Shown: in pieces, positions 27,261 through 30,179 of the stretch
Layout of the letters: each line of letters opens with the position of its first letter
Position numbering within the stretch: position 1 is the stretch's first letter
Source of the DNA: Nitrosopumilus sp.
GTDB taxonomy: Archaea > Thermoproteota > Nitrososphaeria > Nitrososphaerales > Nitrosopumilaceae
DNA: 64,000 nt
Direction of reading: 5' to 3'
Assembly (NCBI GenBank): GCA_965238275.1
Contig: OZ250186.1
Coordinates: 800,001 to 864,000, forward strand
The notes under the pieces: model-generated
Told to the model about the DNA's origin: nothing
Seen by the model: the letters and a program-made list of their open reading frames with translations, nothing else
Database searches by the model: none
Made by a program: the position numbers and the translations under genes

Positions 27261-27314
27261 GGCCGCGCATTCTTGGGGCGTGATTCTGGCACTGCCTATA
27301 GTGAAAAGCGAAAG

Positions 27315-28604
27315 ACGCCATGTGTTGCCGTTGTAACGGTGATCATGGCATTTACCCTGTTGGACCTGAGAGTCGACACGAACTTGCCACTTATGATGGC
27401 GTGCGAAAGAGTGACTCAAGGTATGCGGATGGTCAAATACCGCTTTGACGGTGAATGGGAGTTTTCCGCTGGTCGGGTCCGATATGCTGCAAAGGAGGTG
27501 ATAGCACGTATTACATTGGAATAGACGTTCACAAAAAGAAATGCGTTTCAACCATCAAGGGCAAAACCAACAAGATACTAAGGCAGGCTGAATTTGACAA
27601 TAATGTCCGGGGAATAACCGAATTCGTCAAGATGATCCGCAAGGAAGGATACGTGCCGGCTACGGCCGTCTGCGAATCCACGGCCAACTACTGGATAGTC
27701 GTGCACGACATGCTCGAGGATGTCGGCATCAACACCCTGCTGGCCCACCCACACAACACGAAGATCATAACCGAAACCGTCTACAAAAACGACAAGGCAG
27801 ACTCGGCAAAGCTGGCAGACCTGTGCAGGCTGGACATGATCCCGGAGTCGTTCGTGGCCGACAAGCCCGCGCGGGACCTGCGCGAACTGACCCGCACCCG
27901 CCTGGGCATGAAGATGTACGCCACCGCCCCAAAGAACCGCATCCACGCGATCCTGGCCAAATACCCGCACGAGCAGCCCAAGGGAGGACTTTACGGGACC
28001 TGGACTCGAGTGGCTGCAGGCCGTGCCCCTGAGGGAGGTTGACCGCATGGCGGTGCAGTCGCATCTGGCCACCATCGATACCGTACTAAAGCAGGTGGCA
28101 AAATTTGAAAAAAAGGTAGCCGGGATTGCAATGAGCGACAGGAGGGCACAGCTGATCATGACCATACCCGGAATAGGCTACGTTACGGCAGTAACCATAC
28201 TTGCCGAAATAGTCGACCACAGCAGGTTTGCTGACGCCGAAAAGATGGCCTCATACGCCGGCCTGGTGCCAAAACACCACAACAGCGGGGAGACCGTCAG
28301 GACCGGCGGCATCACAAAACGCGGCTCCGTCTGGCTGCGCCGCGCCATGGTCGAGGCCGCGTTAGTTGCCGTCCAGCACGATGTCCGGATAGGGGCGCGC
28401 TACCAAAGACTGGCAACCCGCATAGGACCCATGAAGGCAAGGGTCGCCGTGGCCAGGCAGATGCTCGAATGGGTCTGGGAGATGCTTGAGCACAGCACCG
28501 AGTACAGGACCCAGGACAGGGATCTTGTAAGACGAAAATTCCAGAGAATAAAACGCATTGCCGACACACAACATCAACGGGTTTGGATGCCCGTAACACA
28601 TGGG
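27315..28604 (+). mobile_element. IS110-family element
   Basis: 2-bp core AG at both junctions (27313-27314, 28605-28606). Subterminal IRs CCATGTGTT (27318-27326) / AACACATGG (28595-28603). Encodes a DEDD/Ser recombinase. Confidence 0.88.
27317..27482 (+). ncRNA. Putative IS110 bridge RNA
   Basis: 5' hairpin 27317-27349. Closing stem 27360-27369/27473-27482 encloses two stem/internal-loop/hairpin arms whose loops match the element junctions. Confidence 0.8.
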
Positions 28605-28643
28605 AGTTCGTGCAATTTTTTGAGATCCTTTTTAAGAAAATAA
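27506..28643 (+). pseudogene. IS110 bridge recombinase, frameshifted
   Basis: YYIGIDVHK, CESTANYW, KNDKAD (DEDD RuvC); TIPGIG, YAGLVP..HNSG, TKRG (Tnp/Ser domain). Frame change near 27995. GGAGGTG is followed by ACG instead of ATG. Confidence 0.88.
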
Positions 28644-28658
28644 ATCCCAACTACAGGT

Positions 28659-30179
28659 ATGATTGTCAGCAAAATCATCAAGATAACACAATCTCGGGAA
28701 CTGTCACGCAAGATCGTGAAATGCTCCCGGGAAACAGACATCATTTACGACATGACGATCATGATGAAACTCACACATCCCAGAATCACGCAGTTTGATG
28801 TCAACAACCTGATAACAGGATGGCGCAGGGAATTCGGCCTGACCAACAGCGTCCGCATGCATGAGGCCGCCTCAAAACAGGCTTTCCAGGCGGTAGTCAA
28901 ATTCCGCAAGGCAAACCGGCTCAAGCACAACAAGCGCATCTGGCGCAAGAAACAGATCAAGCTGGGGAAAAAGAAGACGTACAGGCACAACAGGTGGACC
29001 GAGCCGTCTGGCCTGATGAGGCGCGGCAGGAAAACAACCAGGCTGCGCTCGCTGAATTCACGCGGAAAGCCAAAACTGCGGGACGACGGCACCGTATTTC
29101 TGCCCGGACTCGGGGAAGTAAGGCCGCGCGTAAAGATCCCGGAAGGCAGGCTCGTGTCATTCCAGATGATTGATGTTACGAAAAAAGTCACGCGCAGGAC
29201 GAAAGATTCTGACTGCGAATTCAGACTGTGCCTGCAAATCGAGGTTCCGGATCCCGAACCCGTGACAGACGGCGACGGCGACAGTTGCAAGGCCGGATTG
29301 GATCTTGGAGTCAGGCACCTTGCGGCAGTCGCAGACGAGCATGGGAATGAAAAACTGTACAATGTCCCGGGAGGCTGCAAGAGGCATGACGGCGACAGGA
29401 TTGATCAGCTGAAATCACTTAGATCAAGATGCCAGACAGGCTCCAGAAGATGGAAAGAGATCGGCCGCAAGATAGCGCATGAATTGAAAAATATATCAAA
29501 CAGGCAAAAACACAACGAGATCGACATTGCCAGGCGGATAACAAAAGGGCTGTCTGCGTTGTTCTTGGAAGACATGGATTTGACCAAGATGAGGCGATCC
29601 AACGGAGCAGCCTCAAAGACTGGGTTGAATCGCGAGATGGCATACTCTAGGATTGGAGAGTTTCGATGCCAGCTTGAATGGCAGATGAAAAAGAAAGGCG
29701 GCGTTGCAAAACGCGTGAAATACAGGTACACGAGCCAGAAATGCGCTGCCTGCCAAATAGTGGACAAGAAGTCCAGAAACGGCGAATCCTTTGTCTGCGT
29801 GTCCTGCGGGTGGTGCCACCATGCCGACAAGAACGCGGCAAAAAACATTTTGGATAATGACTGTCTCCATACGGAGGAGACTGGCGGCCAAGCCCACGGG
29901 AATCGTGGAGGCACCATTGCAGGTGTCGAGGTCGTCACAAGGCGCGAGGATCACGGATCGGATGGTTCTGGAATGAACGATTCGACAAGCCGGCTTGGAC
30001 CCGGCAACAAGGAGGATGATGTTGGAAGATCTGACAGAGCGCCGGAAAGAGCATCAGGACATGCTACAGAGAGATCTGTTTGCACGAACTTTCGCTCGCC
30101 GCTATACTACCTGAACGCACCTGATCGCACTATTGCATCTCGATCGTGGACGGGGGCTTGCTTGATATCGCGTACGTGA
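28659..30179 (+). CDS. tnpB: RNA-guided endonuclease TnpB
   Basis: RuvC-I GLDLGVR, RuvC-II LFLEDM, YTSQKCAAC...CVSC zinc finger, RuvC-III HADKNAAKNI, then a ~110-aa tail. Confidence 0.9.
   Translation: MIVSKIIKITQSRELSRKIVKCSRETDIIYDMTIMMKLTHPRITQFDVNNLITGWRREFGLTNSVRMHEAASKQAFQAVVKFRKANRLKHNKRIWRKKQIKLGKKKTYRHNRWTEPSGLMRRGRKTTRLRSLNSRGKPKLRDDGTVFLPGLGEVRPRVKIPEGRLVSFQMIDVTKKVTRRTKDSDCEFRLCLQIEVPDPEPVTDGDGDSCKAGLDLGVRHLAAVADEHGNEKLYNVPGGCKRHDGDRIDQLKSLRSRCQTGSRRWKEIGRKIAHELKNISNRQKHNEIDIARRITKGLSALFLEDMDLTKMRRSNGAASKTGLNREMAYSRIGEFRCQLEWQMKKKGGVAKRVKYRYTSQKCAACQIVDKKSRNGESFVCVSCGWCHHADKNAAKNILDNDCLHTEETGGQAHGNRGGTIAGVEVVTRREDHGSDGSGMNDSTSRLGPGNKEDDVGRSDRAPERASGHATERSVCTNFRSPLYYLNAPDRTIASRSWTGACLISRT

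Follow-up and report, generated by a model that had tools for sequence, protein, structure and literature searches.

A tnpB gene and a putative omega RNA between IS630-type terminal inverted repeats in a Nitrosopumilus genome

TnpB is understood mainly from IS605 and IS607 elements and their scarless excision, and its role in target-duplicating DDE cut-and-paste transposons is known mostly through eukaryotic Fanzors. In the 64,000-nucleotide stretch of a Nitrosopumilus sp. genome analysed here (the window), a tnpB gene lies between inverted repeats that end in TA, raising the question of what kind of element carries it and how that element is moved. Terminal inverted repeats (TIRs) and a TA duplication are DDE hallmarks of the IS630/Tc1 family. 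We conclude, with a probability of about 0.85, that positions 27297-30106 are a non-autonomous, TA-duplicating IS630-family element bounded by TIRs, with tnpB and an omega RNA gene as cargo and a left end interrupted by an IS110 element.

Without the nested IS110, this region forms an element of ~1.5 kb with 27-bp TIRs and TA at both tips (Table 1). A repeat search of the window returned two pairs of arms, 27297-27314 with 30089-30106 (18 nt, 78% identity) and 28605-28615 with 30080-30090 (11 nt, 100% identity). AG is present at both IS110 junctions (27313-14 and 28605-06), so that leaving out 27315-28604 yields a 27-nt left end, and the same left end was found unbroken in many other copies in the genome. 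Read directly, the left and right ends share 23 of their 27 positions, with no mismatch among the inner 17; together with the repeat search, this confirms the 27-bp inverted repeat of the original prediction. The sole gene between the repeats is the tnpB ORF at 28659-30179 and no DDE transposase is encoded in the element, indicating that it is non-autonomous. The TA ends and the tnpB-only cargo, both also predicted, were borne out by the ORF list, Pfam and direct reading. A small palindrome, CGAAnnTTCG, is found inside the TIR.

Table 1. Features of the TnpB element and its flanks (positions in the window)
Feature	Position	Strand	Basis
C flanking the left TA, candidate position of the TAM	27296..27296	+	Left-end flank counts
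TA target-site duplication, left	27297..27298	.	Run X8 contig; 2 nt at diverged empty sites
Left TIR, outer part, TAGTGAAAAGCGAAAG	27299..27314	+	Repeat search, direct reading, other copies
IS110-family insertion within the left TIR, foreign to the TnpB element	27315..28604	+	Pfam
Left TIR, inner part, AGTTCGTGCAA; AG in common with 27313-14	28605..28615	+	11/11 arm match
tnpB open frame, 506 codons	28659..30179	+	ORF list, Pfam, alignment, PDB matches
Structured RNA, read as omega (right-end) RNA scaffold	29863..30097	+	RNAalifold covariation
Right TIR, TTGCACGAACTTTCGCTCGCCGCTA	30080..30104	+	Repeat search, direct reading, genome copies
Right copy of the TA duplication	30105..30106	.	Run X8 contig; diverged empty sites
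Flank, predicted template for the guide of the omega RNA	30107..30126	+	TnpB and Fanzor biology (accessible text of PMC10711439)

The IS110 transposase is in two frames, with Pfam matches to DEDD_Tnp_IS110 at 27455-28042 and to Transposase_20 at 28023-28643. All IS110 copies and fragments in this genome occupy one identical TIR position. Three TnpB elements contain the insertion, two of the window family and a 43%-identity copy at C1:501187-504356, and IS110 is also found at other TIR-like sites. Since its left TIR is split by IS110, the window copy is probably immobile now.

The tnpB frame stays open to the end of the element, crossing the right TIR and entering the flank, and the nuclease core extends to about codon 400. 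Pfam matches were OrfB_IS605 (E 1.9e-11) and Cas12f1-like_TNB (E 3.8e-15); in the PDB, the protein is closest to TnpB and Cas12f-type nucleases. In an alignment of 13 family members, the most distant at 45% identity, D215 (DLG), D390 (HADKN) and the zinc-finger cysteines C362, C365, C380 and C383 are invariant, and E304 (LED) is kept in at least 90% of sequences, in line with the three RuvC acidic residues and canonical DLG/LED motifs noted at the outset. These residues align with the corresponding motifs of solved TnpB-type nucleases. Judged by its conserved residues, TnpB is catalytically intact.

The element is one of many. In the 2.217-Mb genome, the inner 17-mer of the TIR has 22 exact occurrences where 0.00026 would be expected, indicating that the repeat is not due to chance, and the occurrences are always paired ends of ~1.5-kb tnpB units. 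The genome thus searched, a single contig that is 99.9% complete, holds ~22 copies of the element with the same ends, as the original prediction had anticipated; 17 are paired copies of 1494-1670 bp. Every copy is solo, none having a transposase, and the left-end and right-end versions of the sequence consistently differ from each other across copies. Three TnpB subfamilies (down to ~45% identity) lie inside such TIRs in this genome and in a sister species, G017. A protein search (E<=1e-20) found the family in 2 of the 151 genomes drawn across the order, G017 being outside the draw, and a scan of the genome collection gave 17 loci in a single record. Two loci considered as stand-alone TIR-bounded RNA modules, C1:35138 and C1:194030, were rejected as 5'-deleted remnants without a left TIR. 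More distant TnpB families, at 26-31% identity, are also present in this genome.

Transposases that might act on these ends were sought in the same genome, where DDE_3 (IS630-type) gave 35 matches, 32 of them above the family cut-off. One IS630 family, family 2, comprises C1:1873255-1874346 (358-codon frame) and C1:2123838-2124949 (338-codon frame); both frames, at C1:1873267-1874340 and C1:2123918-2124931 respectively, are intact with HTH_32/HTH_23 and DDE_3 domains, and neither element carries tnpB. The TnpB-element ends match family-2 ends at 17-24 of 27 positions (mean 20.1, 64 pairs), close to what family-2 ends show among themselves (17-26/27, mean 20.9), and IS630 family-1 ends at 12-17 of 27 (mean 14.5). 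By this comparison, the TnpB-element ends are demonstrably TIRs of the IS630 type and of the kind borne by resident family 2, which supplies the autonomous IS630 with matching TIRs that had been expected. As the likeness amounts to 63-89% and not to identity, recognition of the TnpB-element TIRs by the family-2 transposase is plausible only. In G017, which has 16 DDE_3 matches, the first 12 loci showed no matching TIR, and a family with matching TIRs was located among the further DDE_3 loci; intact family-2 transposase frames are present in both species. With only tnpB and the guide RNA between IS630-type ends, the element is probably moved by a transposase encoded elsewhere in the genome.

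The insertion sites bear on the duplication. One metagenome contig from public run X8 reads CTGCC-TA-CTACC, the empty site predicted originally, connecting position 27296 with 30105 through 2 shared letters; this joint is from a single contig with a shorter side of 28 letters, and joints with a side below 30 can be spurious. There appears to be an insertion/empty polymorphism at the window site in run X8. The single TA foreseen for the ROK-guaA region is seen in this one X8 contig, and the orthologous spacer in G017 has an indel of ~10 nt at the site and no clean empty site. Orthologous-site searches for six other copies left two usable, the other four being rearranged or unaligned. The family-2 IS630 at 1873255 lies inside an (AGT)n tract that falls back into register once the insertion is subtracted together with one TA. 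A 2-bp TA duplication flanks the TnpB element. Four diverged empty sites each have a spacing of exactly 2 nt. None of them has TA (TG, AA, TG and TG; TA in 0/4), yet 68% of the TA dinucleotides in these flanks are kept in G017.

A 235-nt structured RNA overlaps the 3' tail of tnpB and extends into the right TIR. RNAalifold gave 54 pairs, 25 with compensatory changes; 97% of cells are paired, against 33-43% in slid controls, and the observed values were attained in 0 of 500 shuffles. One helix (30049-30052 with 30094-30097) pairs with the right TIR. Conservation in the 3' 270 nt is 0.91-0.99, compared with about 0.84-0.99 (mostly 0.85-0.94) in the gene body, and the RNA pairs are kept across TnpB subfamilies. 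No Rfam family matches 27200-30300. On this covariation, we read the 235-nt region as a putative omega RNA.

All 36 elements have C as the base adjoining the left end on its outer side (21/21 in this genome and 15/15 in G017), compared with 17 of 39 at the equivalent right-end position (10/24 and 7/15, respectively; Fisher p 1e-8). At family-2 IS630 ends, C is found in just 7 of 14 cases, suggesting that the transposase alone does not account for 36/36. This asymmetry looks like a TAM, which in this genome would read T-N-C-TA and, in the subfamilies of the sister species, mostly purine-N-C-TA. We propose tentatively, and hold it somewhat doubtful, that left flank and target duplication together make up the TAM and that it decides which IS630-mediated insertions persist. 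RNA-guided homing would then keep only insertions oriented with C ahead of TA, and tolerance of sites elsewhere in the genome that match a resident guide would be limited to those whose dinucleotide is not TA; this would explain both the 36/36 left-flank C and the TG or AA at all diverged empty sites. If true, it would provide a natural case, in a prokaryote, of a cut-and-paste DDE transposon whose insertion landscape is shaped by an RNA-guided nuclease that does not itself encode it.

The invariant left-flank C also prompted an IS605-like reading, in which the element would be an ordinary IS200/IS605 (IS1341-type) solo tnpB moved as single-stranded DNA by a Y1 TnpA, with CTATA as its target and the inverted repeat a by-product of hairpins. 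The left flank and tip do read C-TATA, and CTATA also occurs at the right tip in direct orientation, a pattern resembling a fixed left target with a similar right-end cleavage site; the palindrome inside the TIR would fit as well. This reading was rejected because the empty sites retain 2 nt where the model requires 4-5 nt, and because Y1_Tnp has 0 matches in both this genome and G017, two complete genomes, whereas 6 of 14 control genomes score. Direct reading shows moreover that the inner 17 nt are a true inverted repeat and no direct-orientation palindrome, and the same TIR bounds elements with a DDE transposase, making an IS605 origin highly improbable. IS605-type boundaries had been named as the outcome contrary to the original prediction, and no IS605- or IS607-type transposase was found in the genome. 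That some other enzyme moves the element, be it an IS607-type serine recombinase, the nested IS110 enzyme or TnpB itself, is hardly credible: IS110 copies are physically linked to these TIRs, but as a separate insertion within the TIR in only some copies, Resolvase-family matches number 0 in this genome, and a TA duplication with TIRs generally marks DDE transposition.

It is also conceivable that the copies are relics, once spread by IS630 and now immobile, with tnpB and the RNA serving the host or nothing and the C recording an old target preference. The tnpB frame is indeed broken in 6 of the 17 paired copies, copies diverge by up to ~23% at the protein level, and several are interrupted by IS110 or IS630. 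Against this, some copies are 97-98% identical with intact frames, the window site appears polymorphic in run X8, the family-2 transposase frames are intact in both species, and the catalytic residues and RNA pairs are conserved across subfamilies; the 7/14 at family-2 ends, too, make a preference of the transposase insufficient for 36/36. We therefore regard the relic explanation as unlikely.

For a non-autonomous IS630-family element with tnpB and omega RNA cargo, the following cycle can be proposed. Acting in trans, the family-2 IS630 transposase would bind the TIRs and transfer the element to a TA by cut-and-paste. Transcription of the 3' 235 nt and the right TIR would supply the omega RNA scaffold, and the right flank would provide the guide. 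TnpB with its omega RNA would recognise the emptied site, in which the left flank ending in C-TA is followed by the right flank, and would cut it, whereupon repair would restore the element. The TAM would be the invariant C (with T or purine at -3) plus TA, and an occupied site, with A at the TAM position (CTATA), would be spared. Of the DDE TIR element mobilised in trans that had been predicted, the ends, the copies, the family-2 IS630 and the TA site stand, and the mobilisation itself we infer from sequence features.

This genome offers a compact prokaryotic system, in ammonia-oxidising archaea, for the role of TnpB in DDE transposons. Solo tnpB copies are numerous, a defined candidate for the partner transposase is present, the scaffold contains the TIR and is supported by covariation, and the TAM is sharply predicted as C + TA. 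The genome is also a source of small TnpB variants (~400-residue core) with a predicted short TAM.

MITE-like derivatives of IS630/Tc1-mariner elements borrow TIRs and a TA target from an autonomous relative and carry no gene. Different from these, the element described here has the gene for a nuclease as cargo, together with a guide RNA. It resembles the IS1341-type solo tnpB of IS200/IS605 in being a ~1.5-kb tnpB-only unit with many copies and a putative omega RNA at the 3' end. IS200/IS605 elements, as described in the accessible part of PMC13565253, end in hairpins, lack both a TIR and a duplication, and require the Y1 TnpA; the present element has a true 27-nt inverted repeat and 2-nt empty sites in a genome without Y1. 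Unlike in IS607, the serine recombinase TnpA is absent from this genome (0 Resolvase).

The original prediction held this context to be known mainly for Fanzor-related proteins. In 2023, however, IS630-linked and solo prokaryotic TnpBs were published, so that the novelty claimed was overstated and the arrangement is already described in other organisms. As far as the accessible text goes, Altae-Tran et al. (2023, PNAS; PMC10691335) link prokaryotic TnpBs to IS630 DDE transposases with symmetrical ends, and read solo TnpBs whose ends match transposase-bearing elements as mobilised in trans. Our element shares with these IS630-linked TnpBs the IS630-family DDE transposition, the inverted symmetrical ends and a tnpB 3' end less than 250 bp from the transposon end. 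In the DDE-6 branch described there, a transposase and a separate HTH protein share the element with tnpB, whereas all copies here are solo. Our literature search found no publication on TnpB in ammonia-oxidising archaea and none pairing "TnpB" with "Nitrosopumilus".

The element is also like those of Fanzor1, such as the one from Spodoptera frugiperda ascovirus (Yoon et al. 2023; PMC10711439, accessible text), which are non-autonomous, nuclease-only cut-and-paste units. Fanzor1 proteins are eukaryotic or viral with derived active sites, whereas the protein here has canonical TnpB motifs and an archaeal host. In the Fanzor1 element, according to the same text, the TIR and target-site duplication are part of the guide-RNA scaffold and the guide extends past the duplication; likewise, the TIR would form part of the predicted guide-RNA scaffold here.

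A 2810-bp insert was found between a ROK-family gene and guaA, bounded by terminal inverted repeats (TIRs), of which the left one is split into two pieces by a 1290-bp IS110-family element. Removal of the IS110 element yields a 27-mer that is uninterrupted in many other copies and pairs with the right end at 23/27 positions, the inner 17 perfectly. The original prediction of a tnpB bounded by inverted repeats with TA ends, with an IS110 in its left end, was correct in every detail. The ORF, the sole gene within the element, matches OrfB_IS605 and Cas12f1-like_TNB, and in the PDB it is closest to TnpB and Cas12f-type nucleases. 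D(LG), (HA)D(KN) and the four cysteines of the finger do not vary among 13 family members with identities as low as 45%, and at least 90% of them keep the (L)E(D) glutamate.

Coordinates of the tnpB element, its neighbours and related sites (C1, contig of the genome containing the window, G000; G017, closest species compared)
Feature	Location	Detail
ROK-family gene	window 26325-27260	
Left end, outer piece	window 27297-27314	TATAGTGAAAAGCGAAAG
IS110-family element	window 27315-28604	transposase split over two frames
DEDD_Tnp_IS110	window 27455-28042	IS110 transposase, one frame
Transposase_20	window 28023-28643	IS110 transposase, other frame
Left end, inner piece	window 28605-28615	AGTTCGTGCAA
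tnpB ORF	window 28659-30179	
Predicted RNA structure	window 29863-30097	RNAalifold, covariation
Right end	window 30080-30106	TTGCACGAACTTTCGCTCGCCGCTATA
guaA	window 30130-31743	minus strand
Family-1 IS630 copy	window 10637-11903	1.27 kb; TIR TATACCAGCAATGAAAAATTCATATCA
IS110 copies/fragments in G000	C1:504356, 1089473, 1091319, 1289009-1289808, 1920768, 1926102, 2148253-2149863	
Diverged empty-site comparators	G000 C1:762339-40, 759604-05, 172973-74, 576451-52; G017 C1:766570-71, site near 437529-437530	

G000 is a single contig of 2.217 Mb (99.9% complete), in which the inner TIR 17-mer has 22 exact occurrences against 0.00026 expected, and tnpB copies with the same ends were found, as had been anticipated. 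Approximately 22 tnpB copies with 77-100% protein identity were detected by tblastn. Both ends are intact in 17 copies, a set that leaves out the window copy, and lie 1494-1670 bp apart; in each, the left version (…GTGAAAAG…) is upstream of tnpB and the right version (…GCGGCGAG…) downstream. One copy, C1:883619-891004, is interrupted by an IS630. In G017, whose genes are 85-90% identical to those of G000, 15 elements in which one end or both can be read represent two further TnpB subfamilies, ~55% and ~45% identical to the window TnpB, and all 15 are ~1.48-1.50 kb long and bounded by the same TIR type. The TnpB-TIR association is old and common to both species. A protein search (E<=1e-20) of 151 genomes sampled from the order detected the clade in 2, a scan of the species collection returned 17 loci, every one from the G017 record, and ~22 protein clusters at >=44% identity are followed by a drop to ~30%; the clade is rare outside G000 and G017. 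A distant homologue (~29% identity) at C1:1932110-1934613 is bracketed by 41-nt inverted repeats (35/41) 2.5 kb apart and possibly represents a further, different kind of tnpB element with TIRs at its ends.

Because a C always precedes the TATA of the left end, an IS605-like element targeting CTATA was considered, but the empty sites argue against it. For two TnpB copies in repeated DNA there are paralogous uninterrupted sites, and for two others clean orthologous sites exist in G017; in all four comparisons the flanks lie exactly 2 nt apart. A family-2 IS630 (C1:1873255-1874346) sits in an (AGT)n microsatellite whose repeat phase is restored when the element and one TA are removed. For the window copy, one contig from the public metagenome run X8 connects position 27296 directly with 30105, leaving out 2808 nt, with two letters that fit either side, and reads the predicted empty site CTGCC-TA-CTACC; being a single contig whose shorter side has 28 letters, it is supporting evidence, short of proof. 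The ROK-guaA comparison proposed in the original prediction gave, with the spacer of G017, no clean empty site because of a ~10-nt indel there. Run X8 and a second run, X7, hold over window 26900-30500 both this strain's and a G017-like version of the spacer, indicating that both species occur together in these samples. The four diverged empty sites read TG, AA, TG and TG, none being TA, which is odd given that TA dinucleotides in these flanks are kept in G017 in 255 of 373 cases (68%).

Profile searches of G000 gave 0 matches to Y1_Tnp and 0 to Resolvase, while control genomes scored. For the IS630-type DDE_3 they gave 35 matches, of which 32 exceed the family cut-off. Several IS630 families are present, and a family-1 copy also lies in the window. 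In family 2 (elements of ~1.1 kb), frames of 338 and 358 codons are complete and encode HTH and DDE_3 domains, and the TIRs take the form TATA[CG]TGACG..CAAAAGT…TGCA. Over 27 nt, TnpB ends score 17-24 against family-2 ends (mean 20.1, 64 pairs), about as family-2 ends do against each other (17-26, mean 20.9, 56 pairs) and higher than against family-1 ends (12-17, mean 14.5, 16 pairs), indicating that the TnpB elements carry family-2-type TIRs. G017 likewise has no Y1_Tnp match in the profile search and 16 DDE_3 matches, among them family-2 elements with intact 338-codon frames. The sequence evidence supports the proposed tnpB-carrying, non-autonomous IS630-type element moved in trans.

A C adjoins the left TA on its outer side in 21/21 elements of G000 and 15/15 of G017, against 10/24 and 7/15 at the equivalent right-end base and 7/14 at family-2 IS630 ends (Fisher p, 1e-8 for left versus right ends and 3e-5 for left versus IS630 ends). 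At position -3, T is present in 17/21 left flanks of G000; the 15 left flanks of G017 carry A (10), G (3) or T (2) there. A DDE transposase is symmetric and TA palindromic, so that left and right should look alike to the transposase. A TnpB needing a motif 5' of a guide-matched right flank (a TAM) would tell them apart: the excised site would read …(T)NC-TA-right flank and the occupied site …CTA-TA-right flank, with A replacing the C of the empty site. We infer from the flanks that the C asymmetry is TAM-like, matching Fanzors, for which a 2026 review (PMC13565253) reads the 5' target-site duplication (TSD) as part of the TAM. Elsewhere in G000, a resident guide-side flank is matched (0-1 mismatches in 20 nt) at three sites; in this small sample C-AA or C-TG, and in no case C-TA, stands before the match.

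Conservation is higher over the last 270 nt of the G000 copies (0.91-0.99) than over the gene body (~0.84-0.99, mostly 0.85-0.94). For 13 right-end regions from four subfamilies, RNAalifold predicted 54 pairs, in 25 of which both partners change and pairing is preserved; 97% of cells pair, versus 33-43% with partners slid by 1-3 columns, where 4-6 double-change pairs remain, and 0 of 500 shuffles reached the observed values. In one predicted helix (30049-30052/30094-30097), the outer half of the right TIR takes part in the pairing. No Rfam family matches the region, which we read as a probable omega (right-end) RNA scaffold. The tnpB frame stays open through it, and in the alignment the subfamilies differ by indels whose lengths are divisible by three, the exceptions being a single-nucleotide gap at the ragged 5' margin and the loss of 2 nt from one G017 copy. 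No stop codon of the G000 tnpB frame lies within the element. Of the 17 paired copies, 8 form the stop from the terminal TA and the first flank base (G or A), 4 read on into the flank and 5 have earlier stops. With C or T as the flank base, the frame continues into host DNA; that of the window copy runs into the flank and ends at 30179. The copy at C1:951041-952545 is followed immediately at its right end by a 78-nt fragment (C1:950963-951040) that repeats the last part of the RNA region together with a second, divergent right TIR.

The nested IS110-family element, both junctions of which carry AG in the window copy, appears to be specific for the TIR itself. Nearly all its copies and fragments with a visible junction abut the same position of a family-2 IS630 or TnpB-element TIR (…C[AG]AAAG^ … ^[AG][GA]TT[CT]GTGCA), including a second TnpB copy with the same IS110 within its left TIR (C1:2146754-2149882) and a 43%-identity TnpB (C1:501187-504356); the exception is a 3' fragment at C1:1754009 adjoining an unrelated-looking flank. 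IS4321 and IS5075 target the inverted repeats of Tn21, and the element resembles them.

The original prediction took this context to be described mainly for Fanzor-related proteins, a premise now outdated by the IS630-linked prokaryotic TnpBs reported in PMC10691335 and PMC13565253. According to the former (Altae-Tran et al. 2023), a DDE-6 branch of TnpBs goes with IS630 transposases and an HTH protein, and solo TnpBs with ends nearly identical to those of transposase-bearing elements are read as mobilised in trans, an account that the 2026 review repeats. A literature search returned no paper on TnpB in Nitrosopumilus, the supplements of PMC10691335 possibly listing the clade, and, among the papers examined, no further prokaryotic case of a solo TnpB with TIRs and a DDE transposase. 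The kind of element is therefore already known, and this locus is a new case with a testable TAM prediction. Unlike the DDE-6 TnpBs as described there, all copies here are solo and the partner IS630 lacks tnpB, adding an archaeal lineage, a covariation-supported RNA and a left-flank rule. In Fanzor elements, as PMC10711439 describes, the TIR and TSD belong to the scaffold, and the predicted RNA here likewise uses the right TIR.
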